Shown: in pieces, positions 32,846 through 51,601 of the stretch
How the letters are laid out: each line of letters begins with the position of its first letter
Numbering within the stretch: position 1 is the first letter of the stretch
DNA from: Candidatus Marinacidobacterales bacterium
GTDB taxonomy: Bacteria > Acidobacteriota > Vicinamibacteria > Marinacidobacterales > SMYC01
Assembly (NCBI GenBank): GCA_965237955.1
Contig: OZ250169.1
Coordinates: 7,072,001 to 7,136,000, forward strand
Direction of reading: 5' to 3'
Length of the DNA: 64,000 nt
Translations under genes and position numbers: made by a program
The notes under the pieces: model-generated
The model's database searches: none
The model's input: the letters and a program-made list of their open reading frames with translations, nothing else
What the model was told of the DNA's origin: nothing

Positions 32846-33769
32846 CCGGGGAATGGAACAGGGATGAAACCCCTCTTTCGTGCGCGTCGGTTGAGATTGT
32901 GCCGCCGCGTTGTGCCATCCGCCACCGCACGTCACTGGAAAGGCAAGAACTCACCGCAGAGCACGCGGGGCACGCCGAGACTCGCAGAGAAAACGGCACG
33001 GCGCACTCGCAACGAAAACAACCGCACCGACCCACAAATTGAGGGGGACGCGTCGTTATCGGAACGTCGAAGTAATCTCCTGACAGATTCCTGTCGGAAG
33101 TATGCCAACGATGTGCCGTTGCGGAGCGACTCTGTCCGGACGCAGTTGAAGCGTGGGTGACGGCTCACGCACACGGTCCGCTGAACGCCGGTACTGGTCC
33201 ATCTTCTCTTGGCCGTAGTCCAGCTCCGCCATGTAGGCGTTGTGTGCAGGACATAAGAGTCGTATATTTTTGGCGTCGCGGCCGCCGCCGAGGCCATAGG
33301 CTTCGTCGTGATGGAACTGCAGTCCCTCGCGCTCCGGACAACGTCTGCCGTCCGCGCTGACAAACGTGCATTGGTCACAGTCGCGCTCGCACACGAAGCG
33401 CTTGACCGGTGCGGAGATACCACGCACGCCCGGCGACGTGTCGGCTTGTTCGAGGCTTTTTCTCGGCTTTTTCGTCTTGCCGAAGCGTTTCGCTTCGACC
33501 CGTTCCAGTTTCTCGCTCACCGCTGCTTCGACAATCGATGCGAGGTCGTTGCCGGGCATGAGCGCCGCGAGTCGTTTGAGCTTGTCGCGGAGCTCGGCGC
33601 TCGCGGTGAACTGCACTTTGTAGCGTTCCGGCGCCAACGCCTCGACCACCGCCGGCTTTTCAGGTGGGGTGGGATCGGCAGTGGGCGGAGAGCTCTGAGC
33701 CGCTCCGGACGTGAGAAAAAATCGCGTTTCCCAAGGGAGATGGGGATGGTTGGTCCACACTTCTGTCAA

Positions 33770-34528
33770 CTAGGGGGTTATGCGGCTTTTCGCGGCTTTC
33801 AGCTTGTCATACTCCTTCAACGCTGATTCTAGACGATCCTGTCTCTCTCGCCTGGCGCGTTGCTGCGCTGCCTGCATCTGCAGGCTCGATTCCTCCTCCG
33901 TCTGGGCGTTGAGAGTCTCTACCGCCTCACGCGCCTGCTCCAGGCACTCTTCGACCGTCGGCTTGCGGCGAAATCCACTCGACGAAGCGTTCGCGCGCAC
34001 CTTCGTCCCATCCAGCATGACTCGCTCGAGCGTGATCAATCCGTCCGAACTCAGAACTCCCAGAGCTTGCACAAACAACTCGTCCAGGATCTCCCTATGA
34101 ATCATCCGAAAGTCCGACAGCGTGTGCGCACTGATGCTCTGCATTCCGCTGAGCCATTGATACGCCGGATGATGTTCGCACAGCCGCTCAACCGCGCGGG
34201 CCGAACTCACGGCTTGGCTGTAGCTGTAGACCCACAGGCTCACCAGTAGCTGAGGATCAAACGCAGGCCGGCCTGCGCCACCCGCGACCGAGCGGACTTG
34301 ATCCGTGTACCCGCTGAGATCCAGCCGACCCACGAACTCCCAGATCGCACGCGCTGGGTGATCCTCTGGGATCAAACGCTCCACGTCGACCGTCCGCAGC
34401 AGCAGCTGCGCCCTATCGACCACCTTCAACCGAGCTTGTGTCACGCGCGCTCCCTCATCGCCGTCATCACCATCGCTGCGTTTTCGCGGACTCGGAAAGC
34501 CTGGAAGTGACGTTTGCTTATCACCCAC
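33770..34528 (-). pseudogene. IS1182-family transposase, truncated
   Basis: LIPEDHPARAI, GRPAFDP, SSARAVE, HTLSDFR and LDGTKVRANAS. Confidence 0.85.
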
Positions 34529-34727
34529 GTTTACCCCGCTTCCTCCCACGCTTTGCCTTAGGCGTCCGACGCACAATCAGTGTGTTTCGATCCTCCACCA
34601 CCCACTCCAGCTCCTCGCCCGGCTCCATCTCTAGCGCCTGGGCTAAAGGTGACGGGCAAATCACATAGAACTGACGGGTGTCGTTGGCTCGCTTGATCAC
34701 CTGCAGCTTTGTCACGTATCCCATGCT
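34521..34727 (-). CDS. AbrB/MazE-like small DNA-binding protein carried inside the IS
   Basis: MGYVTKLQVIKR...FYVICPSPLAQALEMEPGEELEW; its stop overlaps the likely transposase GTG. Confidence 0.7.
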   Translation of the reverse strand, partial: SMGYVTKLQVIKRANDTRQFYVICPSPLAQALEMEPGEELEWVVEDRNTLIVRRTPKAKRGRKRGKRG

Positions 34728-35412
34728 GGTCACTCTATAACATAGCTGCACCGCTAGTCAAGCTTAATTTTTTCTCACGTCCTCCGTCTGGACGGAGCTC
34801 GTTTTTCGGTTGCTGCGCTCGGTTGGCTCGCCGCTTGGGGAGCTTGCGGACGACGCCGGGAACATCCGGCTTCGGCGCAATCTCGGCCACCAGTTGGCTA
34901 AGCGCTTCTTTGGTCTTGTGAGTTGCTCGAGCCAAGAGCTCGTCGCAGTTGGCGTCCGTCAGATGAGGTGCCAGCACGGCAATGCCGCTCAAGTGAAACC
35001 GTCCATCCTCGAGCATCGTCAACAGCTCGGGATGTCGGCGTGACGCACGTGCAGCGGCGATCCGTAGATAGGCTTCTGTCTCTCCTAGCGTTTCCGCGCG
35101 GGCCACCGCGGTGTCATTTCTTGGTTGCGGCTTCGCTGCGCTGCGTTTCTCTGCGTGCTCTGCGGTGAGAAAAACTACCCGAGACTCTGCCGCACCAGTT
35201 CCAGGCGACTGCAGCTGGACGGCCTTAGCTCCATGGTGCGCTGAACGGAGCTTACTCCCTCACCCTAACGACCTGTCAGTGCCTCATATCGCCGCGCGAG
35301 AGCGCGGTCGAGTTACTGGGGACTCCCCTGGAGACTGGTGACCCGCCTTCGCCGTTGGCTTCGGCGGGCCAGCCGTAGCCTTGCGCGAAGACTGGCTGGA
35401 GGCTGGCTGCCC

Positions 35413-38293
35413 TCATTCCTCGGTGCGGGGGCCTATCTCCACGTCGGTGATCGCTTGCATCACCGCGTCGTGGAACAGCGGACGCACTTCGTAGAGTTTT
35501 CGGTTCTCACGGGTGGGGTGCACCCGGTTGGTGAGGAGGATGGCGAAAAGCTCCCGCTTCGGGTCGATCCAGATCGAAGTCCCGGTGAACCCCGTGTGCC
35601 CGAAGGACTCACCCGAGAAATACTTCCCCGACGAGCTCCGCCCCGACGGGGTATCCCAGCCGAGCGCCCGGCTGGAGTCGGGGACGAGCTCGGCGCGGGT
35701 GGTGAAGAGCTCGATCGTAGCGCCGTTCACAAGCCGGTGCCCGTTGTACGCCCCGCCATTGAGAATCATCTGTACGAACGGCGCGAGGCTGCGTGCCGTG
35801 GAAAAAAGCCCGGCGTGCGGCGCAAGCCCTCCGAGACCGTATGCGTTCTCGTCGTGCACTTCCCCGTGAACGACCCGGCCGCGCCACTCGTCTCGTTCGG
35901 TCGGCGCGATCCGTGAACTGAGCGACGCGGGCGGCTGGAAGAGAGTCTCGTCCATACCGAGTGGCTCGAAGAGCTCTTCTTGCGCAAGAACGTCGAGAGG
36001 TTTCCCGGTGATGCGCTCGAGGATCTCCCCAAGAAGGAGAACCCCGAGATCGGAATAGGAAGTCTTGGACCTTGGCGTGTAGTCGAGCGGCATCTCGCAG
36101 ATCGTTTCGATGTACCCGGCCCGGGATTCTTCCGGCGTCTTTCCCTCGAACTTCTTGTAGAGCTCGGTCCACCACAAGAGCCCGCCGGAATGAGCGAGCA
36201 GATCCTTGACGAGAACGGTGTCTTTCTCGCCGCCGGTGAACTCCGGTATATACGCGGTCACAGGGCTTTCGAGATCCAACTGCTCCCGCTCGTAGAGGAT
36301 CATCGAAAGCGTGGTGGTGACGATCACCTTCGTGAGCGACGCCAGGTCGTACATCGTGTCGCGGCGGACGCGCTCGGCGTCTTCGTCGTAGCTCAAACGG
36401 CCGAGCGCCTCCTCGACCACGATTTCACCTCGTCTCGCCACGAGCACGACGGCACCCGGTGTTGCCCCGTCCTCGATCGCTTTGCGCACCCGATCGACCG
36501 CATCGTTCAGACCGCGCTTCGACATCCCCACTTCCTCGGGGTTTTCCTGTTGCTCGAGTTTCATAGCGTGCGCATCGGCGCGAAGGCCGTGCCCTTGAGG
36601 ATACCCCTCGGACAGACGAACCGGAAGCCTACCGTTGATTGGGACTTCCCCGAAGAGCGCCCGCGCGAGTGCGCGCTGCGACGCCGGCGCAAAATCATAG
36701 GTCGCGATGAGCGCGGCTGCCCCCGAAAGCTCGCTCAACGCATACGGTGTTCCAAGGCTCACGAAAATCACCCGCGTCCCGCGACGCGCGAGCTCGGCGA
36801 GAGCCTCGGTCAGGGCCCCGGCTCGCTCGCCGGGCCCGAGCAGCGATCGTTTCTGTGCATAGCTGGCGACGACGACGACTTCACCTTGTTCCGGGACGAT
36901 CCGCTCTGCCATGGTGTCGACGGTACGCGGCGTGAGACGAACACGGCGCACCCGGCGAGCTCGCTTTTGGAGCTCCTCAGCAAGGACGTCCGGATCCGAC
37001 GCGCGATCGCGGGCGAACAGGTAGTCGACGAGAAGCACGTCAGGTGGCTCCGCACTACTCAACGGAACGATCTCGTTGTCGTTGCGCACCAGGGTGAGCG
37101 TCTTGGAAGCAATGGCGTCGATACGTTCGCGAGCGCTCGGTGGGTTCACCGTGCGTTGCACGGCCATGAGGTCGACAGTGCGCTTGCGATGCAAGTCGAG
37201 CCGAGCCTTGGCTTGCAAAATACGCCGCACCGCATCACCGATGCGAGCCTCGGAGAGTTCGCCGCGTCGAACGCCTCGCAAAACAGACTCATACGTCACG
37301 AGTGGATCGGGGGGCACGAGCAGCATGTCGACACCGGCCTCGACCGCGGCCACCGCCACTTCTCCGTCCCATGCGCCGGCACGCGCGCCGCCCATGTCGA
37401 GCGCGTCGCTCACGATGAGGCCTTTGAAACCGAGCTCCCCGCGGAGAGCTCCCTGGAGGACTTCTTTCGAGATCGTTACCGGTTTGTCGGCGGGCCCACC
37501 CAACGCCGGTACCGCAATGTGCGCCGTCATGACTGCGGCGACACCGGCATCCACGGCTGCCGCGAACGGAACGAGCTCGACGTTTCGCAGTCGTTCGCGA
37601 TCGGACCGCACCACCGGCATGCTCAGATGCGAATCGACAGCGGTAGCTCCATGCCCGGGGAAGTGCTTTGCGGTCGTGAGAACACCGAGCTCTTGCGCCC
37701 GTTGGATGTACGCGGCGCCCAGGCGTGCCGCTTGTTCGGGATCTTCCCCGAACGAGCGCGTGTTGATCACCGTGTTCGCCGGGTTCGTGTTCAGATCCAA
37801 GACCGGGTTCAACAGCAAATGGATTCCGAGCGCACGCGCCTCACGGGCGGTGACCTCGGCTTGAAACTCGATGTCGTCCTCCGACGCGCCGGCGCCCATG
37901 GCCATCGCCACGGGAAAACGGCTCGCGCCCTCGACCCGCATGGCCGGGCCCCACTCGTAGTCGGACGCCATGAGGAGAGGGAGCCTCGCCGCCTCTTGAA
38001 GCCGGTTGGCAAGCGCCGCCGTCTCCTAAGGGTTCTCCTTTGAAGAATACGAAACCGCCGATCCGACCCGCGCGGGCTGCCGCAAGAAGCTCCTGAACTT
38101 CCGCATCCGATTCATTCGCAAAAAGGCTATTGCTTCGCGGATAGATCATCTGGCCCACTTTTTGTTCGAGGGTGAGCGTGGCGAGCGTTTCCTCGACCCA
38201 CAACGCGTTTCTGGCATCGGGTGCTTCGCCACGCCTCGAGCCCGCGCAGCCGACGCCAAACGCGAGGAGGATCGTCAGAGCAATTCGTTTCAT
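35413..38293 (-). CDS. Lipoprotein: GH3 beta-N-acetylglucosaminidase fused to a beta-lactamase-like serine hydrolase (frameshift about 38028)
   Basis: Signal LAFGVGC; LTLEQKVGQM, INTRSFGED, KHFPGHG and SDALDM; then YDLASLTK, YSDLG, HAGLFST and GHTGFTGT. The N-terminus is in a different frame. Confidence 0.88.
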
Positions 38294-38326
38294 ATACGGC
38301 CAATCCTACTTACAATAGAGACGCAT

Positions 38327-39082
38327 ATGAAACAGCTCATCGTGACCGCCGACGACTTCGGCCTCACTCCCGGTGTCGTCACTGGCATCGTCGAGGCGCA
38401 CGAGCGGGGGATCGTCACCGCAACATCGCTCATGGTCAACGCGCCGGCGGCGGACGCGGCGTTCAAGTGGGCGCGCGAGCATGATTCTCTCGCCGTCGGG
38501 CTCCACTTCGTTCTCACCTTCGGCCGGCCGGTCGGCCCCGCGTGGCCGCTCGGCGATCTCCTCGATGGCGACGGCTCGTTCCGGAAGCTCGATGCGGGCG
38601 TCCATGACGAGGCCACCCCGGGACAGGTCGGCGCTGAGCTCAGGGCGCAGCTCGAGCGCTTCAAAGCCAATGTCGGCCGTCCGCCCACGCACATCGATGG
38701 CCACCATCACGTGCATGCGGTTCCGGGTATCCTGAGCGCGGTTCTCGAAGCGGCACGCCGCTATCAGATCCCGGTGCGCTCGCCGGACGACCGCACGCAC
38801 GCTCGCTTGCGAGCCATTGGAGTTCCGACATCAGATACGTTCGTCGACACTTTCTACGGCGAGGACAACGTCGACGAAGACGAGCTCGTCGCGATTATCA
38901 ACGAGCTTCCCGAGGGTACCACCGAGCTCATCTGCCATCCGGCCCACGAAGATACTCTCCTTCCCACACTCAGCAGCTACACCGACGCGCGATACCTCGA
39001 GTGTCGGACGCTCACATCGGACGATGCCCAGCAGGCATTGATCGAGTGCGACGTCGAGCTCGTACCGAGCCCCGTGTCCTAG
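38327..39082 (+). CDS. ChbG/HpnK/YdjC-family carbohydrate deacetylase
   Basis: [24 protein letters not shown] and TELICHP. Confidence 0.9.
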
Positions 39083-39125
39083 TGCCCAGACGGCACGCTT
39101 GATAATGTCGAAGAAGAGGAGAACT

Positions 39126-40373
39126 ATGGGAAAAGCTCTCGAAGGTACTCGCATCCTGGATATGACCCACGTTCAGTCAGGACCAACGTGCACCCAGATC
39201 CTGGCGTGGTTCGGCGCTGACGTCATCAAGGTCGAGCGCCCCGGATCCGGTGACGCCACGCGCGGCCAGCTGCGCGACATACCGGACGTGGACAGCCTGT
39301 ATTTCACGATGCTGAACGCCAACAAGCGCAGCATCACCTTGAATCCCAAGACCGAAGCGGGCAACAAAATCTTCGCCAAATTGATCGAAGAGTGTGACGT
39401 GATGGTCGAGAACTTCGCTCCCGGCGCGATCGATCGTATGGGATTTCCATGGGAGAAAATTCAGGAGCTGAACCCACGCATGATCTACGCCTCGATAAAG
39501 GGGTTCGGCCCAGGTCCGCTCCAGGATTGCAAGGTTTACGAGAACGTCGCCCAATGCACCGGCGGAGCAGCGTCGACCACGGGCGAGATCGATCGTGTTC
39601 CCATGGTGACCGGCGCCCAGATTGGCGATTCCGGCACCGGCATCCACCTCGTGGCGGGCATCCTCGCCGCACTATTGCACCGTGAGAAAAGCGGCAAGGG
39701 TCAGCGCGTGGAATGTGCCATGCAAGATGCCGTGCTCAATCTTTGCCGGGTGAAACTCCGCGACCAGCAACGCCTCGCCCACGGCCCACTCACAGAGTAT
39801 CCGCAGTATCCCAACGGCGAGTTCGGCGATGCGGTGCCGCGCGCCGGTAACGCCTCCGGCGGCGGCCAGCCGGGCTGGATCGTCAAATGCAAAGGATGGG
39901 AGACCGATCCGGACGCCTATATTTACATCATCACCCAGGTGGCCGCGTTCGCCGCACTGGCCACGGCCATCGGTCATGAAGATTGGCTCGAGGATCCGGA
40001 ATGGAACACGCCCAGGGCACGCCTTCCCAAGCTGGACAAGATGTTTAATGAGATCGAGAAGTGGACCATGACCAAAGACAAGATGGAGGTCATGGACATC
40101 CTCAACCCGTTGAACGTTCCGTGCGGTCCAATTCTGTCCATGAAAGAGATCGCCGAACAAGAATCTCTTCGGAAGACCGGTACCGTGGTCGAGGTCGATC
40201 ACCCTGAACGCGGCAAGTATCTGACGGTCGGGAACCCGATCAAGCTCTCCGACTCGCCCGCCGACGTCCAGCGCGCGCCGCTTCTCGGCGAGCATACCGA
40301 AGAGATCCTCAAGACCGTCGTCGGTCTCGATAACAAAGAAATCGAGGCAGCACGCGAGCACGGAGCGATCTGA
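39126..40373 (+). CDS. frc: Formyl-CoA:oxalate CoA-transferase
   Basis: [39 protein letters not shown] and [12 protein letters not shown]. Confidence 0.93.
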
Positions 40374-40377
40374 CACG

Positions 40378-41439
40378 GTGAAATACAACGTACTGATTCT
40401 CGGTGCCTCGTACGGTTCGTTGTTCGGCACGAAGTTGTTGCTCGCCGGGCACTCGGCAACGTTGATCTGTACGAAGCCCACCGCCGAGCTCATCAACCGC
40501 GACGGAACCGTGGTGCGCTTCCCGATCCGCGGCCGAGAGACGCCGGTCGAGATCTCATCGAAGGCGCTCGACGGTCATCTTTCCGCAAGCACACCAGACG
40601 ATGTCGAGCCCGGTGATTTCGACTTGGTCGTGCTCGGCATGCAGGAAGCTCAGTACGGCTCCGACGGCGTACGCGAGCTGATGGGACGCATCGCGACGGC
40701 ACGCGTGCCGTGTCTCGCGATCATGAACATGCCGCCGCTTCCCTACCTCGAGCGCATTCCCGGACTTTCGACGGAGCCGTTGAAGCAGTGTTTTGCCGAC
40801 CCCGGTGTTTGGGAAGGCTTCGATCCCGGGCTCGTCACGCTCGCGAGCCCCGACCCCCAAGCATTTCGCCCGCCCGACGAGCCGAAGAACGTTCTCCAAG
40901 TCGGTTTGCCGACGAACTTCAAAGCGGCGCGCTTCGAATCCGAACAGCACACGAACATGCTTCGCGAGCTGGAGTCCGACATCGACGCCATCCGGTTCGA
41001 TCCCGGCGACGGCGCCCTCGAGATCCCGGTCAAGCTCAAGGTGCACGATTCCGTCTTCGTGCCGCTCGCCAAGTGGCCGATGCTCATCACCGGCAACTAC
41101 CGCTGCATCCGGCGTGACGACATGATCCCGATCAAGGACGCCGTACACGCCGATATCGAGATGTCTCGGGACATCTACGCGTGGGCCGCGAAACTGTGTA
41201 CGAAGCTCGGAGCCGCTGATGCCGACCTGGTTCCCTTCGAGAAATACGCGAAAGCGGCAGAAGGGCTAGCGAAACCGTCGTCCGCGGCGCGTGCTCTTTT
41301 CGGCGGCGCCAAGGACATCGAGCGCGTCGACTGCCTGGTGCGGCAGATCGCAAAACAACAGGGCCTGCAGTCGGAGACGGTGGACGAGATCGTTACACTC
41401 GTGGACGAACGTCTAGAGAAAAACCGCGCGGGCGACTGA
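40378..41439 (+). CDS. Ketopantoate-reductase-like Rossmann protein
   Basis: ILGASYGSL N-terminal motif; IMNMPPLPY and PTNFKAA; starts 4 bp after frc. Confidence 0.65.
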   Translation: MKYNVLILGASYGSLFGTKLLLAGHSATLICTKPTAELINRDGTVVRFPIRGRETPVEISSKALDGHLSASTPDDVEPGDFDLVVLGMQEAQYGSDGVRELMGRIATARVPCLAIMNMPPLPYLERIPGLSTEPLKQCFADPGVWEGFDPGLVTLASPDPQAFRPPDEPKNVLQVGLPTNFKAARFESEQHTNMLRELESDIDAIRFDPGDGALEIPVKLKVHDSVFVPLAKWPMLITGNYRCIRRDDMIPIKDAVHADIEMSRDIYAWAAKLCTKLGAADADLVPFEKYAKAAEGLAKPSSAARALFGGAKDIERVDCLVRQIAKQQGLQSETVDEIVTLVDERLEKNRAGD

Positions 41440-41573
41440 ACGAGGAAAACTCGTCTCTTCATTCGCCTGTTTTTGGACGTTTGGAGACGGGGGACAAGTC
41501 CCGCCATCCGCTGATTGAAGCTCACCCTGGTCCCAGCTAGAATTGCCATCCAGAAGACCGACGAGTCACAAAA

Positions 41574-44114
41574 GTGATCGGCCAAACCCTCGCCCACTAC
41601 AAGATCCTGGAGAAGATTGGCTCAGGAGGCATGGGCGAGGTCTATCTGGCCGAGGACACCAAGCTCGACCGGAAGGTCGCACTGAAAGTTCTTCCGCCCG
41701 AGATGGCCGAGAGCGAAGAGCGCCGGGCCCGGTTCAAGCGTGAAGCCAAAGCCATCGCTGCACTCAATCATCCCAACATCGTCACCGTCCACTCGGTCGA
41801 AGAAGCTGACGGTGTCCACTTCATCACGATGGAGCTGGTCCAGGGGAAGACGCTTACGGAGCTGATCCCGAAGAAGGGCCTGCCGCTGAACCAGTACTTC
41901 GAATTAGCGATTCCCCTGGCCGATGCGGTGAGTGTTGCCCACCAGAAGGGCATCATCCACCTGGATCTGAAACCCGACAACTTGATGCAGGACGAGGAGC
42001 GGCGGCTCAAGATTCTCGATTTCGGCCTCGCGAAATGGAGGCAAGAGATCCGGGAGGCAGGTCTGAGCGAGCTACCCACGCAGGCGGCTACCGGAGAAGG
42101 ACGCATTGTGGGGACGGTGGCCTACATATCTCCCGAGCAGGCGGAAGGCAAGACGGTTGATCATCGCTCCGATATCTTCTCGATTGGAATCATCCTTTAT
42201 GAGATGGCGACGGGACAACGCCCTTTCACAGGAGAAACGACCGCTTCGGTTCTTTCGTCCATCATCAAAGAGACGCCTCTTTCGGTCACCGAAGTCAATC
42301 CCGCTCTACCAAAGTCCCTGTGGAGAATCACCAGACGGTGTTTGGCCAAAGATACGGAACGTCGGTATCAGTCTGCCAAAGAGATCCGAAATGAACTGGA
42401 GGAATTGAAGGGGGAGCTGGCCTCGGGAGAGCTCGTGGAGGGAGCGGTCGTTACGAAGCGCTCTCCGGTCGTGAAATGACCTACTTCCTTCGAGAGCTAC
42501 CGAGCGACCGTCTTCGCTTCACCAACCCGATTCAGATCACCTCGGCAGCGGGCGTGGAAGACTTTCCCACGTGGTCTCCCGATGGCGAGCGCCTGGCATT
42601 TCAGTCGGAGGAGAGCGGCAATCCTGACATCTGGGTGACCCAGCTCGGAGGCGGGGGAGCGGTGAACCGAACGGTGGCTCGCGTCGAGGAAGACCAAAGT
42701 CCGAGGTGGTCTCCCGACGGGAGCCAGATTGCGTTCCTCTCGGGGACGGACGTCTTCGTCATGCCAGCGGTGGGTGGCCGGCCTCGCAAGGTGTACGCTC
42801 CGGAAAGTGCGCGTTTCATAGGTTCAATTGACTGGTCGGCGGACGGCGCCGAGCTCGCGGTCGCTTTCAGTGCACCGGAAGGGCACTTCATCGACATCTT
42901 CTCCCTCCCGTCCCAGGAGACGCGGCGAATAGCCTCTCCGAGAAGATGCTGGGACCAGAGCTGGTCTCCTGATGGGCGCTACTTCGCTTGCGTCGCCGCG
43001 GGGAATGATCGTGCGCAAAGGACAAGCCTCTACCTTTTGCCTTCCACCGGAGGTGAGCCCATCGCCGTCACCGACAGGAGCTCGGGCGAGTGGAGCCCGA
43101 GCTGGTCCTCGGATGGACGCCGGCTCTTTTTCGTCTCGAACCGCGGCGGGAGTATGGATCTCTGGCAGCAACGCATCGGGGAGGAAGGGCCGGTGGGTGC
43201 TCCGGAGCCCTTGACGGTTGGTGTCGGCATGCGAAGGGCGGCCTTTTCTCCCGACGGGACGAAGCTCGCTTACTCCAGGGGCCGGATGGTGTCGAACGTG
43301 TGGCGCGCGCCCATTCTCCGCGAACGTCCAGCGACCCGGGCCGATGCCGAGCAGATCACCATAGGCCAGGCATACACCGGCCTCGGCGACATCTCTCCTG
43401 ATGGCCGGAGACTCCTGGTGGGCCGGAATAGGGGTATCTGGGTGCTCCCCGCCGAGGGGGGGCGAGATGGCCCTATTAACGACGGATGCCCGGGAGGGAA
43501 GATGGTCGCCGGACGGACGGGAGATTGTGTTCGGGTCACGCCGCGGGGGAAACCCGGATCTCTGGGTGATGCCCGCGGAGGGGGGTCCTGCCCGGCAGCT
43601 TACTTCAGACCCAGAAGGGGATCACGATCCGACGTGGTCTCCTGACGGAACGGAGATCGCCTTTCGCTCGCTCCGGAGCGGCAACTCCGACATTTGGGTG
43701 GTCTCGGCGGATGGGGGTGAACCGCGCCAGGTGACGGATCATCCCGGAAGCGATCAAAGCCCCGCCTGGTCGCCCGACGGCAAGTGGTTGGTGTTCCAGT
43801 CCCTCGGTCGCGGGGCCGGTCTCTGGCGCATTCCCGCTAGTGGAGGGGAAGCCGAGCCTGTCGCCGAGGGCAGGGCATACCGACCTAGCTGGTCGCCCGA
43901 CGGCAAGGAGATCTACTTCGTGCGACCGACCGACATCAGCACCAACATCTGGGCGGTGTCGTTAGAGGATGGGCGCGAGTACCCGGTGACCGATTTCTCG
44001 GGACGGCACGGGAGCCTCTACGAGTTCCCCCTCGCCACGGACGGAGACTACCTGTACTTTACCTGGGGAGAAGACCTCGGCGACATCTGGGTCATGGACG
44101 TCGTGGCAGAATGA
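41574..44114 (+). pseudogene. Ser/Thr protein kinase + TolB/PD40 beta-propeller protein, split into three ORFs
   Basis: Kinase motifs GSGGMGEVY, LNHPNIV, IHLDLKPDN and DFGLAK in 41574..42479; many WSPDG repeats in 42476..43645 and 43401..44114. The expected TM linker is missing near 42480. Confidence 0.8.
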
Positions 44115-45444
44115 TCTTTACTGTCGTACCCGCTCCCTCCACGCTTTCGAGCTGAATCTCGCCTCCCAAGCTGTGGATGATGCTCCGGCAGTTGAACAGC
44201 CCCCAGTTGCCTGTAGAGACCCTGCCCTCAGCCACCGTAAACGAAGGCTCGAATATCTGGTCCAGTCGCTCCGCCGGAATCCCGTGTCCGTCGTCCTCGA
44301 CCTCGACGACGACACCGTTTTTGTTGGCGCAGGAGCGAACGTGAATCGTGCCGTTGTCGCCGATCGCGTGCCTCGCGTTCAGCAGAAGATTCGTGAACAC
44401 GGCACTCAACTGTTGTGGACGGCACCGGAAAGTTGGAAGCGGCTCGAGCTCCAGGGTGATGTCCGCGGTCTTCTCGAGCTCGGCTCTTAGAGTCTCAACG
44501 GTATCCTCGAGTAGAACACGCACGTCGACCGCCGCTTCCTCCGCCCGATCAAGATGAGTGAACCGCTGCATCCGTCCGACAACCTCGCTCAGGCGTTCGC
44601 AGGAGCGTCTGGCCGTCGTCTCGATGTCGCCCAGCACTTTCATCAGCCGGTCTGAGGGTTGCTCTCCAGCTTGCGACTTCTCGAGGGCGACAGCCAGGGT
44701 GCTCAAGTTACTTTTGATAACCCCGATGGGCGAATTGAGCTCGTGACTCAAAGCTGCCGCGAGCCGTCCTTGCGCCGCCGCACTCTTGGCGAGAGTCACC
44801 TGCGCCTGAGCTCGTAGCACTTGCTGGCGGGCCTGAAAGGCGGAGGCTCGCTGGTGGTAGACCACAGCCGTCAATCCCACAAAGATGAGCGTCACCACAA
44901 CGAGGGAGGCCAAATTCAACGGCGAAACGTCCGGAACGAATAACTTCTCTGGATAAATCGCCATCGCGCCAACGTAGGTTACGAACATCGATGACCCGAG
45001 AGCTAGAGTGTGAAGCGGCCGTAAAGGCATCGCGCCGATACTCACCAGCATCACCAGATTGATGTTCGGCGGAACGGCGTGCTCGACTCCAGGATAAGAG
45101 GCTGTCACCGCCGTTACGATGAAGATCAACGCCACGCCATAGCCGATGACACATCCGGCTAGCCGCGCGTGTTTACGTAGCCTGGGCAGGACCCAGAACG
45201 GGACCCCCACCAGGCCCGTCCCCATCAGAGCGAGATCGGGCCAAACCCAGATGTGAGACAAATATCCCAGCTTGCTCAATATCGTAGTGACCGTCAGCAT
45301 GAACCCAACCCCTACCACGGTGATGAAGACGATTGCTCTCAGGCCGACGACGGCGACCCTCGTCAACTCTTCGCGCAAGGCGGGATCCCGCTGCTCTTCT
45401 TCAGGCAGCAGATATCGTTTCCAATCGCTCCACCGGATACCCAT
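44092..45444 (-). CDS. Membrane sensor histidine kinase
   Basis: About 6 TM segments, H-box LSHELNSP, N-box NLLLNARHA, G1 VEDDGHGI and ESVEGAGT. Confidence 0.9.
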   Translation of the reverse strand: MGIRWSDWKRYLLPEEEQRDPALREELTRVAVVGLRAIVFITVVGVGFMLTVTTILSKLGYLSHIWVWPDLALMGTGLVGVPFWVLPRLRKHARLAGCVIGYGVALIFIVTAVTASYPGVEHAVPPNINLVMLVSIGAMPLRPLHTLALGSSMFVTYVGAMAIYPEKLFVPDVSPLNLASLVVVTLIFVGLTAVVYHQRASAFQARQQVLRAQAQVTLAKSAAAQGRLAAALSHELNSPIGVIKSNLSTLAVALEKSQAGEQPSDRLMKVLGDIETTARRSCERLSEVVGRMQRFTHLDRAEEAAVDVRVLLEDTVETLRAELEKTADITLELEPLPTFRCRPQQLSAVFTNLLLNARHAIGDNGTIHVRSCANKNGVVVEVEDDGHGIPAERLDQIFEPSFTVAEGRVSTGNWGLFNCRSIIHSLGGEIQLESVEGAGTTVKIILPRRP

Positions 45445-45899
45445 CGTATGCCTCCCCGGGAGTTGACCCCACGGCCAGGACATTCTAGTCCATGTATCAG
45501 AAATTGTTTTGCAATACGCATCGCCACATGGTCGAGCACAGCGCGGCGGAGCCGCAACGAAACTCATGACTTTGGAGTGGGAGCAGTCCGTCTGGCCATC
45601 GCCCGGTCAGTGAACCAGGAAGCTCGGCCGAGTCAAGGTTAGCCTCGTTTCGCTCGGCGGCTTCGCCGACCCTCGACATATTGACTCGACCTGCGCAACG
45701 GGTAGCGGTTCTGTCTCACTCAACTCCGGACGTGAGAAAAAATCGCGTTTCCCAAGGGAGATGGGGATGGTTGGTCCACACTTCTGTCAACTAGGGGGTC
45801 GGGTCCGCGCGGTACGGATTCACCCGATATCGTATCGGCGTTTCGTTGGTGCTCTATGACTAGCGCTTTAACAAGTCGGGCTGCGTGTGCTCAACGCGC

Positions 45900-47466
45900 T
45901 CACGTCGGCACGAGTGTCGATACCATCTTCGGCCTCCAGCGGAGGCGAATCCACTGCAAGATATCGTAGGTGAGGGCGACCCACAGAGATTCAGTGCGCA
46001 CTTTGGCGACTCCGCGCACGCTAAACTGCCGCAGGCCGAACTTGGTTTTGATCCAGAGATTCGGAAACTCGGCCACCTGCGAGCGTGTCTTATAGATGGC
46101 CTTGGCTTCGTCGGTCTGCATCTTCTTCCGGAACGCGGCTATGTCGGGCAAGAGTTCGCGCCGCTCGATCGAGCGGCCGTGCTGCGTACGAGGACAACAC
46201 TGCTCTTTGGCCGGACACGTCTGGCAGTCTTGCTTAGACGCCTTATATCGATAGCGCATCGTGCCATGGCTTTCCTGCTTGGCGTCGTAGCGTAAGTGCT
46301 TGCCCTGCGGGCACACATACGTGTTGGTCTGCGTATCGAAGACAAACTTCGACGCCTCGTATTCCGCTTTCACGCCGTGGTGCTTATACGACTTGCGCCG
46401 ATTGGCCTCTGCTGCCTTGTTCTCGTGGTCGGGGCCGACGAGATCGATGCCGCGCTTCGCCATCTCCGCGATGTTGTTGCTACTTAATGTAGCCTCCATC
46501 TACGACCATCTGCTCGGGCGCACGCTGCATGCTCTGCTCAATCCGTTCTATGGCCGGCGTCAGCTGCTGATAATCGCTACCGGCCTGCGTGGCATCGATG
46601 TCGACAATCAGGCCGTGTGCGGCATCCGTTGAGACTTGGACGTTGTAGTTAGGTGCGGAGCCGCCCTCGGCTTGCTTCATCACCCGCGCGTCGGGATCGG
46701 TCGTGCTCACGCAGTCTATGCGGCTTTTCGCGGCTTTCAGCTTGTCATACTCCTTCAACGCTGATTCTAGACGATCCTGTCTCTCTCGCCTGGCGCGTTG
46801 CTGCGCTGCCTGCATCTGCCGGCTCGATTCCTCCTCCGTCTGGGCGTTGAGAGTCTCTACCGCCTCACGCGCCTGCTCCAGGCACTCTTCGACCGTCGGC
46901 TTGCGGCGAAATCCACTCGACGAAGCGTTCGCGCGCACCTTCGTCCCATCCAGCATGACTCGCTCGAGCGTGATCAATCCGTCCGAACTCAGAACTCCCA
47001 GAGCTTGCACAAACAACTCGTCCAGGATCTCCCTATGAATCATCCGAAAGTCCGACAGCGTGTGCGCACTGATGCTCTGCATTCCGCTGAGCCATTGATA
47101 CGCCGGATGATGTTCGCACAGCCGCTCAACCGCGCGGGCCGAACTCACGGCTTGGCTGTAGCTGTAGACCCACAGGCTCACCAGTAGCTGAGGATCAAAC
47201 GCAGGCCGGCCTGCGCCACCCGCGACCGAGCGGACTTGATCCGTGTACCCGCTGAGATCCAGCCGACCCACGAACTCCCAGATCGCACGCGCTGGGTGAT
47301 CCTCTGGGATCAAACGCTCCACGTCGACCGTCCGCAGCAGCAGCTGCGCCCTATCGACCACCTTCAACCGAGCTTGTGTCACGCGCGCTCCCTCATCGCC
47401 GTCATCACCATCGCTGCGTTTTCGCGGACTCGGAAAGCCTGGAAGTGACGTTTGCTTATCACCCAC
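45900..47466 (-). pseudogene. IS1182-family transposase, frameshift at about 46485
   Basis: STTDPDARVMK, YNVQVSTD and VDGGY continue in ORF 45900..46499 (YVCPQG, YKTRSQVAEF, FGLRQFSVRG). Confidence 0.85.
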
Positions 47467-47772
47467 GTTTACCCCGCTTCCTCCCACGCTTTGCCTTAGG
47501 CGTCCGACGCACAATCAGTGTGTTTCGATCCTCCACCACCCACTCCAGCTCCTCGCCCGGCTCCATCTCTAGCGCCTGGGCTAAAGGTGACGGGCAAATC
47601 ACATAGAACTGACGGGTGTCGTTGGTGTTCCGCTTCAGCGGAAATGAGACTTTCTGCAAGTGACGGGTTCTCTCCCCTGCCTGGGTGAACTGCCATGGTA
47701 TCGCCACCGGGAGGATAGGGCACTGCTGGGAAGCAACCCGAGCGCCCGGTGGCCGGAATACGGTTGGCATTA

Positions 47773-48819
47773 TTACGCACTGTGTTCATGCTCCCGGGCT
47801 CCGGTATGAGCCAAACCGGATCCGCTCAAAGCGGAAAATCCCGGGGGTTCGGGGGCAGAGCCCCCGTTCGCTATGTGACAACTGGATTCTCCGAGCCGTT
47901 TGAGGTTTTCTTCGCGGCGATGCTTGCGTGCGTTCTCGAGTTTGTCGAGACGTACCTGCTTGCGCTCTTCGTGACGGAGGAGAAACCGGTCTTCGGGCGT
48001 GAGGTATTCGATTCCTGCGTGGAGCCTCTTTGCGTTGTAAATCTCTATCCATTCTCCGATGATGTCTTTCGCGTGAAGCTGATTGCGAAGCTCCTTGTCG
48101 GAGAGGCCCTCCTCGCGCAACGTGCGATGAAATCGCTCGATTGCACCGTTGGACTGCGGATGATGAATGCGAATACGAATCTGCTTCAATGAGAAGTGCT
48201 TGATGAGTTTGCGGAAGTCCTTGCTGGTAAATTGGCTGCCGTTGTCGTTGACAATCTGGGGCCGTTCTCCAGGGTAGCGCTCCAGTGCTGCATGGACCAC
48301 ATCCGTCACTTCGGCGGCGGTCATGCGCGACAGCAGTTCCCAGTACACGATGTAGCGCGAGAAGCCGTCCAGCACTCCGATGAAGAAATACCACCGTCCC
48401 GCGATCCACAGGTACATCAAGTCCGTATGCCAGCGTTCGTGGGGGCGTTTCGGAAGTTCGGGCTTGCGGCCTACGGACGGTGTGGCATTCCACCTTGCGA
48501 GCAAATCGTTCCGGTCCAGAATGCGGTACACGCTGCTCGGGCTCAGGCAAACGACATCCTCGTCCACCATCATCCAGCACAGCCGCCGGTAGCCGTCCCG
48601 TGGGTGTGCTAAAGCATAGACCGTCACCGCCTCCTCCTCTTCGGCAAGCACCTGGTCCAAGTCTGGTGCCTTGGGCTTGATGTCCTCCAGCGCTCCCTCC
48701 TTGCGCCTCTTTTGCCAGCGGTAGTACAGCGAGCGAGAGAGCCCGAGCTTCGAGACAACCCATTCCAGCTTCACCCGGCTTCTCTCCATCGTCTGCTCGA
48801 TACAATCCAAAATCCTCAA
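47773..48819 (-). CDS. IS3-family transposase OrfB (DDE integrase core)
   Basis: WHTDLMY, LDGFSRYIV, NDNGSQFTS and PQSNGAIERFHRT. Confidence 0.9.
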   Translation of the reverse strand: MRILDCIEQTMERSRVKLEWVVSKLGLSRSLYYRWQKRRKEGALEDIKPKAPDLDQVLAEEEEAVTVYALAHPRDGYRRLCWMMVDEDVVCLSPSSVYRILDRNDLLARWNATPSVGRKPELPKRPHERWHTDLMYLWIAGRWYFFIGVLDGFSRYIVYWELLSRMTAAEVTDVVHAALERYPGERPQIVNDNGSQFTSKDFRKLIKHFSLKQIRIRIHHPQSNGAIERFHRTLREEGLSDKELRNQLHAKDIIGEWIEIYNAKRLHAGIEYLTPEDRFLLRHEERKQVRLDKLENARKHRREENLKRLGESSCHIANGGSAPEPPGFSALSGSGLAHTGAREHEHSA

Positions 48820-48851
48820 CTTCTCGTGCGGCTCGAAACGACACCGGTCGA

Positions 48852-49145
48852 CTAGCTTCCAAGCGTTTTTTTTAGGTCCAGATTCTCCATGGTGATCTCT
48901 ACCACCACCGATTTCATCCTCTCAAGCTCTTGACGCAGCTTCTCCTCGCGGCGAGACGCCTTCTCCTTCTTGCCATTCTGAAATGATTCCAGTGTCGCCT
49001 CCTCCGATTGTTTCAGCCACTGATAGTACTGCCCTGTATTCAATGCGTGGCGCCGACACACCTCGGACACCGTCGCACCACTCTCCTGGCACTCCTTGAG
49101 TATCTGCAGCTTCTCCTTCGCTGACCAACGTTTCCTGCCGTCCAT
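48852..49145 (-). CDS. IS3-family OrfA (HTH), with an A8 slippery site linking it to OrfB
   Basis: KRWSAKEKLQIL...VSEVCRRH...YYQW; ends LKKTLGS over an AAAAAAAAC tract. Confidence 0.88.
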   Translation of the reverse strand: MDGRKRWSAKEKLQILKECQESGATVSEVCRRHALNTGQYYQWLKQSEEATLESFQNGKKEKASRREEKLRQELERMKSVVVEITMENLDLKKTLGS

Positions 49146-49574
49146 CTCTGCCTTCTCCCTTCGTTGAGTATAAGACAGAGGCGAAAACCGTCACTTACTA
49201 CGACCCCCAAAAGTCTCATTTTGGCTGAACCAATACAGTTGGCTCGCTTGATCACCTGCAGCTTTGTCACGTATCCCATGCTGGTCACTCTATAACATAG
49301 CTGTACAGCTAGTTAAGCTTAATTTTTTATCACGTCCTCTGCCCGGGCAGAGTTGAGCGTGAGCTCGCGAAGAAAAAGATCACTTTGTGCTTGACAGCTT
49401 TTTGAAGGCGTGTTGGAAAAAAGTGTGCGCGCGATCTCTAGTGCGTCTGTGCGCGGCGTAAAGCAACGATAGTCGCCTTGTTTTCGCTGTCGAGACTTCG
49501 CAAGACCGTTGACGTCTTTGCGTTTGACAGGCGCGAACTGAGTGTGACGAAAAACTCCATGCTATAAGAAACAC

Positions 49575-50660
49575 ATGAACAACATAGACGAATTGAGATC
49601 GCTTTCCGACGACGAGTTGCTTCATCGTGTGTCGGATTTGTTAGCGCAGTCGCGACGTGTCGAGTGGGTTCTTGTCGCACACATCGCGGAAGTCGATGCA
49701 CGTCGACTCTATGCTCGCGAAGCTTCGCCGTCGATGATTCACCACTGCATGGATGTGTTGCATTTGTCGGAAGGGGAAGCTTATCGGCGCATCGCCGCAG
49801 CTCGGCTGTCACGCAAGTATCCGGTGATCCTTACGATGCTCAAGGACGGACGCCTTCACTTGTGCGGTATCGGAGTGCTGTCCAAGCACCTGAGTGACGC
49901 CAACTACGAAGACGTCTTGGCCAAAGCCACGCACAAGAGCAAACGTGAGCTCGAAAAGCTCGTGGCCGAGTTGGCTCCGAAACCGGATGTTGCGCCGACG
50001 ATTCGTAAGCGGCCGCAACGCAAAGCGAAGGCGGCGCCTCCCGAATCGTCGAACGAGCTCTGCCCGGACAGAGGTGAGCAAAATGCTCCCCCAGTCGAGC
50101 CCGCCCCTCCACAAGCCCCTGAAAAACCGGCAACGGTCGAGCCTCTGGCGAAAGCGCGCTACAAAGTCGAGTTCACGGCGAGCGAGGAGCTCCGCGACAA
50201 GCTCAAACGGCTCGAGGCGCTCATGCCGGGAAGCGACCTCGCGTCCATCATAGACGCGGCCGTGTCCGAAAAACTCGAGCGCGTCGAGGCCAAACGCTTC
50301 GGTAAGACCAACAAGCCGAGAAAAAGCCTTGAAGCAGCTGATACCTCGTCGGGTGTGCGCGGCATCTCGGCCCCAGTCCGGCGTTTCGTCTGCGAACGTG
50401 ACGGGGACCAATGCACGTTCGAAAGCCCTGACGGCAAACGATGCCCCGAGCGTGACAGGCTGGAGTTCCATCACGACGAACCCTGCGGACTAGGCGGAGA
50501 CCGAAGCGCGAAGAACGTCCGGCTCCTCTGTAAATTACACAACGCCTATATGGCTGAGCTCGACTACGGCAAAGAAAAGATGGACCAGTACCGGCGCTCC
50601 GCCGACCGCGTCTCGGAACCTCAACCCACACTCGAACTCTGCCCGGGCAGAGTTGCGTAA
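49575..50660 (+). CDS. DUF222-like/HNH endonuclease, intact
   Basis: N-terminal LVAHIAEVDARRLY...LSEGEAYRRIAAAR; C-terminal RDGDQC...C...FHHDE...NVRLLCKLHN. Confidence 0.85.
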   Translation: MNNIDELRSLSDDELLHRVSDLLAQSRRVEWVLVAHIAEVDARRLYAREASPSMIHHCMDVLHLSEGEAYRRIAAARLSRKYPVILTMLKDGRLHLCGIGVLSKHLSDANYEDVLAKATHKSKRELEKLVAELAPKPDVAPTIRKRPQRKAKAAPPESSNELCPDRGEQNAPPVEPAPPQAPEKPATVEPLAKARYKVEFTASEELRDKLKRLEALMPGSDLASIIDAAVSEKLERVEAKRFGKTNKPRKSLEAADTSSGVRGISAPVRRFVCERDGDQCTFESPDGKRCPERDRLEFHHDEPCGLGGDRSAKNVRLLCKLHNAYMAELDYGKEKMDQYRRSADRVSEPQPTLELCPGRVA

Positions 50661-50958: not shown

Positions 50959-51580
50959 ATGACCCTCAACTCCGGAACCCGCCTCGGCCCGTATGAAATC
51001 CTGTCGCCGATTGGCAAGCGTACAGGGCGAGGTCTACAAGGCCCGCGATCTCAAGCTGGGACGCCAGGAAGCCCGCGCCGCGTCAGCCTTGAATCATCCC
51101 AACATCGTCACGATCTACGAGATCGGCGAGCACGACGGCATGCCGTACATCGCGGTGGAGTACGTGGACGGCAAGACGTTGAGGGAGGTGCTCGCGGGTG
51201 GTCCGCTTCCTAACGACAAGCTCATCCGCTACGCGGCTCAGATGGCCGAGGGTCTTGCGAAAGCGCATCAGGCGGGGATAGTTCACCGTGACTTGAAGCC
51301 CGCGAACACCATTATTAGTGACGACGAGGTATATCAAGATCCTAGACTTTGGTCTCGCCAAGTTGATGCCGCAGAGCTCCGGCGTCGATCCCGAGATGGC
51401 GACGATGACGAAAGCGACGCGGGCGGGCACTCTTCTGGGCACGGTGCAGTACATGTCGCCGAGCAGGCCTCCGGCCGTCGCGTCGATTATCGTTCGGACC
51501 AGTTCTCGTTCGCGTCGATCCTCTACGAGATGATGACGGGAAGGCTCGCCTTTCAAAAGGGCGTTTCGAATGTCATGAAC
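50959..51580 (+). pseudogene. Degraded Ser/Thr protein kinase
   Basis: GTRLGPYEILSPIG, ALNHPNIV, HRDLKPAN, KILDFGLAK and GTVQYMSP are spread over several frames; 3'-truncated. Confidence 0.85.
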
Positions 51581-51601
51581 TCCAGCCCCCTTCCTCCCTG
51601 G

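Follow-up and report, generated by a model that had tools for sequence, protein, structure and literature searches.

The window analysed here is a stretch of 64,000 nucleotides from a Candidatus Marinacidobacterales bacterium (assembly GCA_965237955.1, contig OZ250169.1, positions 7,072,001 to 7,136,000); the host genome is 8.13 Mb in size and its nearest relatives are labelled Acidobacteriota, Ca. Marinacidobacterales. On the forward strand, an intact gene (49575-50660) encodes a polypeptide of 361 amino acids, predicted to start with a ParB/Noc-like helix-turn-helix domain, from which a disordered linker leads to a middle domain and an HNH nuclease domain. The gene is associated with a 20-bp palindrome of consensus AACTSN-GTCC-GGAC-NSAGTT that occurs at three places, namely upstream, in the linker and at the 3' end. 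A sequence match placed a perfect copy at 50635-50654 in the last codons, read as ELCPGRV, just where a preliminary description of the window had reported it. The linker variant listed in the same description was also found (50056-50075, ELCPDRG); it has three mismatches and represents the most constant site across the family. The upstream palindrome, about 240 bp 5' of the ATG, is split by an insertion sequence (IS), with positions 4-20 and the outer arm at 49338-49357 (right part 49338-49354) and the displaced left end at 45719-45727, including a 3-bp target duplication with one mismatch (duplicate at 45725-45727). Gene and palindromes are interpreted here as a multicopy, likely selfish gene whose product would bind its own sites and which would spread by cut-and-capture, a reading to which we give, taken as a whole, an even chance of being right.

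The reconstruction of the split upstream site offered in the preliminary description proved correct. A relative (L199), whose product shares 91% amino-acid identity with that of the window gene and whose distal flank is common with window 45485-45531, has this site uninterrupted, and one contig of the public run X4 joins 45723 to 49337 with the insert absent. These two observations rule out the doubt raised by the imperfect duplication and by the flank at G000 4100193, which is a 93% inverted copy of the 3' flank of the gene and likely a remnant of a lost sister copy. The window also contains a paralog on the reverse strand, 5'-truncated and split by an IS, with its C-terminal part (residues 169-361, 78% identity) at 33125-33697 and its N-terminal part (residues 64-165, the match beginning at residue 64) at 34783-35088. 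Palindromes had been claimed at equivalent places in this copy, and both were found, the 3' one at 33128-33147 (QLRPDRV) and the linker one divided by the IS between 33701-33706 and 34783-34799.

A model of the full-length protein (mean predicted local distance difference test score, pLDDT, 76.5) showed a helical domain connected by a disordered linker to a small middle domain, which is followed by an HNH domain. In this model the ParB/Noc-like DNA-binding domain covers residues 8-140 approximately, with a predicted recognition helix at 66-81, assigned from the order of the helices; the middle domain (193-242) likely serves dimerisation, and the putative nuclease domain spans 258-336. Folded alone, residues 8-140 gave a pLDDT of 87.6 and aligned with the DNA-binding domains of ParB, Spo0J, Noc and KorB at Z 8.0-9.7 (Raf1 also reached 8.0); on rescoring of 138 Foldseek chains, the ten best rows were all ParB, Spo0J or Noc (Z 8.4-9.7, 98-121 residues, root-mean-square deviation 2.4-5.1). 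A wide fold search returned KorB/ParB and the GVE2 HNH protein, each at Z 6.8. The DNA-binding-like domain begins at about residue 8, leaving no room for an N-terminal CTPase domain. Residues 258-336 match HNH enzymes by fold, and C280, C290, H299, H300, C319, H322 and N323 are near-invariant, the presumed catalytic and zinc residues being kept in 109-116 of 121 aligned rows with mostly gaps in the rest, while N314 varies. The ratio of non-synonymous to synonymous substitution rates among paralogs within four genomes was 0.14-0.30 for the binding domain, 0.12-0.21 for the HNH domain and 0.41-0.61 for the linker; the nuclease is under purifying selection among paralogs.

The preliminary description had called the gene DUF222-like with an HNH nuclease. 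The HNH part of this assignment held, by fold and by matches to PF01844 in 21 of 49 aligned members (E≤0.05), the window protein itself having no Pfam HNH match. The DUF222 part is weak: the window protein matches PF02720 at E 0.0065 and 16.3 bits against a cut-off of 24.4, over profile positions 5-111 of 306, and 12 of the 49 aligned members do so at E≤0.05 (best 7e-7), which suggests distant N-terminal kinship only. There was no ParB Pfam match in the window protein or the aligned members, and no HUH/Y1 transposase domain in the Pfam or NCBIfam scan, the nuclease region folding as HNH. A sequence search of solved structures gave no match to the family profile and, for the N-terminal domain, four non-significant rows only (E 2.6 or worse).

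In the host genome, strict sites numbered eight, against zero to one in five block shuffles. Of the consensus matches, every perfect one (eight) and 14 of the 16 near-perfect ones fall no more than 4 kb from one of the 19 loci of the gene family, which make up 2.1% of the genome; this agrees with the enrichment near family genes that had been predicted, although the 4-kb count is partly circular because the consensus was partly built from the same sites. The best sites sit at genes, with few solo sites elsewhere, and the palindrome is therefore not a dispersed repeat family; a dispersed REP population was accordingly rejected, given the 14 of 16 best sites near the 19 loci. Related genomes provided an independent test on 100 distinct loci, a site being defined by at least nine of ten fixed bases. 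Such sites were present in the linker at 75 of 100 loci, upstream at 15 of 98 and at the 3' end at 28 of 97, compared with 1 of 100 and 4 of 99 in control windows, and further sets of loci had at least one site in 59 of 65 and 45 of 47 cases. The linker site is read in two frames (62 and 13 loci), and where its position 17 is four-fold degenerate, the base is A in 50 of 53 cases versus 662 of 5273 (12.6%) elsewhere, as expected from the earlier proposal that the peptides are dictated by DNA symmetry.

Compensatory change between the arms, also anticipated, was seen among 57 distinct linker sites, in which pairs 5-16 and 6-15 were each complementary in 47 (28.8 and 18.1 expected from a shuffle that ignores kinship); complementarity at pairs 7-14 and 8-13 was not above expectation in the same set, and the invariant CCGG centre is partly due to site selection. 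Sites within one element tend to have the same variant (28 of 34 pairs, shuffled mean 16.6). The base at position 6 follows the protein, residue 67 having the highest mutual information with it among columns 10-139. In the discovery set, G6/C15 accompanied His or Trp at residue 67 in 21 of 22 cases and other residues in 4 of 53. In a first hold-out, drawn from 67 loci after leaving out 13 with an asymmetric and 13 without a linker site, G6 occurred in 7 of 8 cases with His or Trp and 1 of 33 without; in a second, from 57 loci less 10 duplicates or fragments and 17 lacking a symmetric linker site, the counts were 9 of 9 and 4 of 21. Sites outside the linker gave 9 of 10 versus 2 of 45 when pooled, and 3 of 4 versus 1 of 25 in the upstream non-coding subset; a contact between protein and linker peptide as the source of the link is thus ruled out. 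On a tree of 121 rows built without residues 62-76, the two traits changed 14 and 15 times, jointly 18 times, and column 67 had the highest phi of 293 columns (0.85, next 0.49), a value reached in none of 5000 tree simulations. An association of R71 with T6 was dropped as independent evidence, being confined to one clade. Another clade, at about 28% identity and with a different helix, has its own different palindrome inside all three of its genes in the host genome.

The protein thus likely reads the palindrome, as judged from these sequence comparisons: the ParB-like fold together with the covariation of residue 67 and base 6 makes the site likely to be a duplex binding site of the gene's own product. 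A ParB dimer places its recognition helix in a duplex palindrome, and a switch of specificity, with symmetric base changes, is ascribed to four residues (PMC7383237). Since the domain is predicted to be ParB-like and ParB reads duplex palindromes, a duplex rather than a hairpin target is favoured, and we consider it highly probable that a dimer binds the 20-bp palindrome as duplex. The preliminary description had instead suggested that the HNH protein recognises or spreads hairpins, by analogy with RAYT-REP. A protein that nicks the palindrome as a single-strand hairpin or cruciform, as RAYT does on REP or SsnA on NTS, would produce the symmetric covariation at pairs 5-16 and 6-15; perfect copies do fold, at -8.1 and -11.8 kcal/mol, and some IS1182-family members, an example of which occupies the upstream site, are said to target palindromes (PMC5678879). 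However, the covariation tracks a protein residue and is absent from the two inner pairs, two of four folded copies were no stabler than shuffles, and the predicted fold is that of duplex readers. In 179 distinct sites, G-T mismatches numbered 45 on the top and 57 on the bottom strand, the other 97 of the 199 mismatches not being wobble pairs, and with G-T mismatches on both strands there is no sign of a one-strand hairpin. No spread of free hairpins by the protein was seen; the multicopy unit is the gene, and solo sites are few. Hairpin nicking is accordingly held to be improbable. Of the proposed self-propagating unit, the part in which gene and palindromes form one multicopy unit stood, and its hairpin or RAYT-REP form did not.

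The family is a dispersed multicopy chromosomal repeat in the host genome, its 19 loci being intact or broken. Of 41 related genomes, 26 had family matches, at most 49 in one genome (matches, not copy numbers), and none of 14 genomes of one family had any. Further afield, matches occurred in 3 of 201 genomes of a phylum sample (at most nine candidates scored per genome) and in 5 of 20 genomes of another order, and of 121 sampled genomes from the phylum to which G041 belongs, where few candidates were scored in each, G041 alone matched. Collections of plasmid and phage records contained no family match. The numbers of matches in related genomes, their rarity in the phylum sample and the low substitution ratios outside the linker are read as signs of a selfish gene. 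A profile search of clusters at 50% identity returned 24,898 at E≤0.001 and 6,475 at 1e-30, and look-alike Atlas clusters were most frequent in Myxococcota and Bdellovibrionota. Frequent neighbours of the copies are multicopy Ser/Thr-kinase and beta-propeller genes (names based on motifs) or a tRNA 3' end immediately before the copy (window 41574-44114 and 50993-51664, L151, L033, L154).

In one subfamily, homology between paralogs runs from the upstream palindrome, its 5' edge, to the 3' palindrome or at most about 120 bp past it. In another subfamily (42 matches), seven copies examined showed the linker site only, without edge sites. Over the family the ends of homology are ragged, mostly at -183 to -285 on the 5' side and -31 to +183 on the 3' side; there are no fixed ends and no consistent target duplication, and inverted flanks were not general among about 55 loci compared. 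Long terminal inverted repeats were rejected as element ends, being present in a few loci only. Tandem duplications that contain the site were found in linkers: L288-L291, L277, L309 and L318 have linkers with two to three tandem palindromes, and L311 and L317 have leaders with two extra sites at -108 to -215 (one genome). A mini-element at G000 6276569-6276771 joins an upstream-type palindrome to the last 53 codons and 3' palindrome with 183 bp between, and at G000 6971729-6972007 a gene fragment (residues 53-145) and the leader of the following copy are fused, with a palindrome between them. Between the orthologs L038 and L039, a short indel deletes the upstream palindrome in one. A mosaic flank repeat of 100-200 bp that bears GTCAAG...CTTGAC hairpin motifs is present outside several copies; in some cases it stands at both ends in inverted orientation, and it also occurs alone (G000 4072186-4072310, 6729199-6729316, 4521956-4522072 and 4300728-4300859; window 45478-45650).

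These features bear on a reading in which the palindromes are only operators through which the protein represses its own toxic nuclease, copies gathering by hitchhiking, horizontal transfer, addiction-like persistence or host benefit. The residue-67 code, sites near the promoter and inside the gene, the vertical inheritance of several loci and the messy junctions are all accounted for in this way. It leaves unaccounted for the tens of diverged paralogs per genome at unrelated places and under purifying selection, the start of homology at the upstream palindrome in one subfamily, and the tandem sites in expanded linkers, and we regard it as rather unlikely that the palindromes serve as operators only.

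Ten loci were compared with a genome of the same genus, and four of these were missing from the sister genome, providing the presence/absence polymorphism expected of a unit that moves. At L155, a 1,412-bp unit stands in place of 12 bp without duplication, the sole clean single unit of the ten. The insert at L166, 2.85 kb long and including cargo, begins 13 bp ahead of the upstream site and stops 29 bp short of a solo palindrome common to both alleles; the empty allele has 5 bp of other sequence. L152 comprises 4.5 kb with cargo between 12-bp direct repeats, and L044 is a 6-kb composite; a direct repeat was thus present at one of three non-composite empty-site junctions. The sister has a deletion at L157 with one end at the edge of the linker site; L161 is replaced, rearrangement affects L153 and L154, the sister retains L029 in decayed form, and L168 is uninformative.

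In the cut-and-capture reading, a dimer of the predicted fusion of a ParB/Noc-like domain and an HNH nuclease would dock on the palindrome in its own gene. The steps that would follow are put forward with less assurance: the tethered HNH domains may cut in cis at variable distance, the gene may be freed as a ragged-ended piece, sometimes with neighbouring cargo, the donor could be repaired from the sister chromatid, and the freed piece could be joined at another break by host end-joining.

Two other routes of movement were considered. The bound dimer might nick one strand at or near the internal palindrome, creating an origin for strand-displacement or rolling-circle copying, with insertion by microhomology. 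The protein has no helicase or covalent-transfer domain, HNH enzymes are not known to form a protein-DNA link, which counts against such copying, and a head-to-tail element joint was not among the joints listed for four runs. One internal site would be enough for nick-and-copy, as in the subfamily without edge sites, the tandem linker duplications contain the site, and the nearest HNH folds include phage nicking enzymes (PMC3592412); on balance, we give this route a slim chance. Movement of the homing type, in which the nuclease cuts solo palindromes in gene-free DNA and repair copies the gene beside them, would fit L166, with its solo palindrome in both alleles 29 bp from the insertion point, and the existence of solo sites in the genome. 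Against it count the intact presumed binding sites that the gene keeps inside itself and the empty alleles of L155, L152 and L044, which have no such palindrome at the junction in the stretches inspected, and homing appears very improbable.

Several observations weigh against binding followed by cut-and-capture. The fold similarity is modest, Foldseek giving the isolated domain TM scores of 0.47-0.59 with non-significant E-values (1.1 or worse), and Z values below 13 can reflect a common helical arrangement. Residue 67 was chosen after the fact, the hold-outs have clades and genomes in common with the discovery set, and a strict independent-pairs test, in which many tree branches were poorly resolved, had only two and four pairs on well-supported branches (p 1 and 0.25) and was underpowered. 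The ten loci comprise one clean unit, three with cargo, three rearranged or replaced breakpoints, one partly deleted, one present and one uninformative. Their empty-site differences fit gain or loss alike, and three further locus pairs are orthologous. Close paralogs within a genome are mostly 85-96% identical, with no identical pair among the loci compared, while IS copies are 99-100% identical; movement must therefore be rare or slow. No cut position could be derived: the breakpoints at palindrome positions 16-17, two in number, agree with the register of IS1182 and were perhaps caused by the IS itself. The host genome encodes Ku, but so do all 14 genomes of the family without the gene, and Ku was set aside as uninformative about the cause of the distribution. 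In one sister genome with few element copies (7-8 matches versus 31-34), the Ku gene is in two pieces (G013:C1:946772-947315).

The upstream palindrome of the window contains an IS1182-family element on the reverse strand (45728-49337), in which an IS3-family element is nested (47626-49237, reverse strand). The IS1182 transposase matched NF033551 with 263 and 126 bits on two frame-split parts, each alone below the cut-off of 270. The paralog's linker palindrome is occupied by an internally deleted IS1182 copy with a 3-bp duplication (33707-34782, reverse strand). IS1182 copies have terminal repeats and duplicate palindrome positions 4-6, or the mirror 15-17; 10 of 12 complete copies in the genome sit in a palindrome in one register (background 3 in 200,000), as do 8 of 9 IS ends in fetched loci, two of which are from the host genome, the loci being centred on the gene. 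IS1182 is a separate parasite that targets the palindromes. The flanks of two further copies, at G000 2448758 and 4100193, do not match each other, which points to IS-mediated rearrangement or mis-assembly. The IS1182 end in the window (45728-45736) starts GGACGTGAG, close to the right half-site GGACGGAG of the preferred target. At L196, right after the gene end, a miniature of about 230 bp with IS1182-like ends lies in the 3' palindrome, and an IS end lies in the upstream palindrome. Template switching can perfect palindromes, and the palindromes might be by-products, either footprints of IS1182, as its presence in 10 of 12 cases could suggest, or quasi-palindromes perfecting themselves in a tolerant linker. 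The IS duplicates 3 bp only, IS-free alleles exist, and the site keeps its position at 75 of 100 loci and varies with a residue of the protein, so that this explanation is largely refuted and retains next to no probability.

A second IS is found repeatedly just 5' of the conserved TTGACA of the leader, pushing the upstream palindrome 1.6-3.7 kb away (G000 6560042, 5700227, 6231153, 5576923, 5205997 and 1522083; L043, L055 and L227); we take its ends to be IS481-like. The leader itself (49383-49574, forward strand) has a T-tract with TTGACA (49391-49396) and an A-tract with TGCTATAA (49560-49567), about 169 bp apart. These motifs (T-tract with TTGACA and A-tract with TGCTATA, window 49383-49567) resemble the halves of a sigma-70 promoter and are near-invariant across diverged leaders, TTGAC(A/G) being found in 139 of 158, with a spacing of 167-172 bp (169 in 45 of 83 scored). 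The leader likely represents a leaderless extended -10 promoter, judging by its motifs, and the same binding that would start movement likely represses the gene too. No Rfam match was obtained in 30000-54000 and no consensus RNA fold on either strand of every second of 139 leaders. A collapsed promoter with normal -35/-10 spacing was rejected, as its pattern had two matches, neither at a known family locus.

Among known systems, the gene resembles the DUF222 (PF02720) and HNH (PF01844) genes of REP13E12, a mycobacterial repeat family that serves as a phage integration target and flanks deletions (PMC2323391, PMC10589994), in having multiple chromosomal copies, a DUF222-like N-terminal part and an HNH C-terminal part. 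It differs in that only profile positions 5-111 match, below the cut-off, and the available text of these two sources names no cognate palindrome, ParB-like fold or mechanism. With ParB-parS and Noc-NBS (also KorB and SopB) it has in common the predicted DNA-binding fold, a spacer-less palindrome read on both halves and a specificity that a few residues switch together with symmetric base changes; unlike them, its model has no N-terminal CTPase domain, an HNH domain is fused instead, the sites are in the gene itself, and the gene is multicopy and patchy. As in RAYT (TnpA-REP) with REP/REPIN, a nuclease gene is tied to palindromes, persists for long and provides IS targets. RAYT, an HUH enzyme, is described as typically single-copy with many dispersed repeats (PMC5581495), whereas the present system has an HNH nuclease, a multicopy gene (19 loci) and few sites, most of which lie at the gene. 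In Ssn (SsnA-NTS/SRM), a nuclease gene is flanked by co-evolving cognate palindromes (PMC11893778), but SsnA is a small single-domain GIY-YIG cutter of single-strand hairpins with up to hundreds of repeats, whereas the present HNH protein has several domains and its gene carries the site internally. Free-standing HNH homing endonucleases likewise combine HNH with a separate DNA-binding domain in a selfish gene without transposase; they spread to allelic sites lacking them, while the present gene occupies many unrelated chromosomal places, keeps its own sites intact and has no phage or plasmid match. General terminal inverted repeats, defined ends and consistent target duplication, as in a classical IS, are lacking. 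Judged by defining features, the element falls outside RAYT-REP, Ssn, classical IS and ParB proper; with REP13E12/DUF222-HNH genes its kinship is distant at most.

No description of the system, nor a mechanism for repeated DUF222/HNH-type genes, was present in the literature searched, outside which lie supplements and subscription papers, and such genes are abundant (24,898 clusters). It is possible, if somewhat less than evenly probable, that the family represents a class of transposase-free mobile DNA, consisting of a ParB-derived self-targeting nuclease and its cognate site, with site and helix changing together by a simple code, cut-and-capture with cargo, and parasites of its own (site-specific IS1182 and miniatures). 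If so, bacteria would possess a mobile element without transposase that also gives rise to breakpoints of rearrangement and offers landing pads to IS elements, its diversified nucleases would form a natural library with sites of 16-20 bp, and the class would account for a superfamily of about 25,000 protein clusters, likely also for the long-unexplained DUF222-HNH repeats. The cognate site and the one-residue specificity rule make the family directly testable at the bench. Elsewhere in the window, and with no relation to the HNH family, a perfect AT-rich 19-bp inverted repeat with a 7-nt loop was found at 1994-2038.

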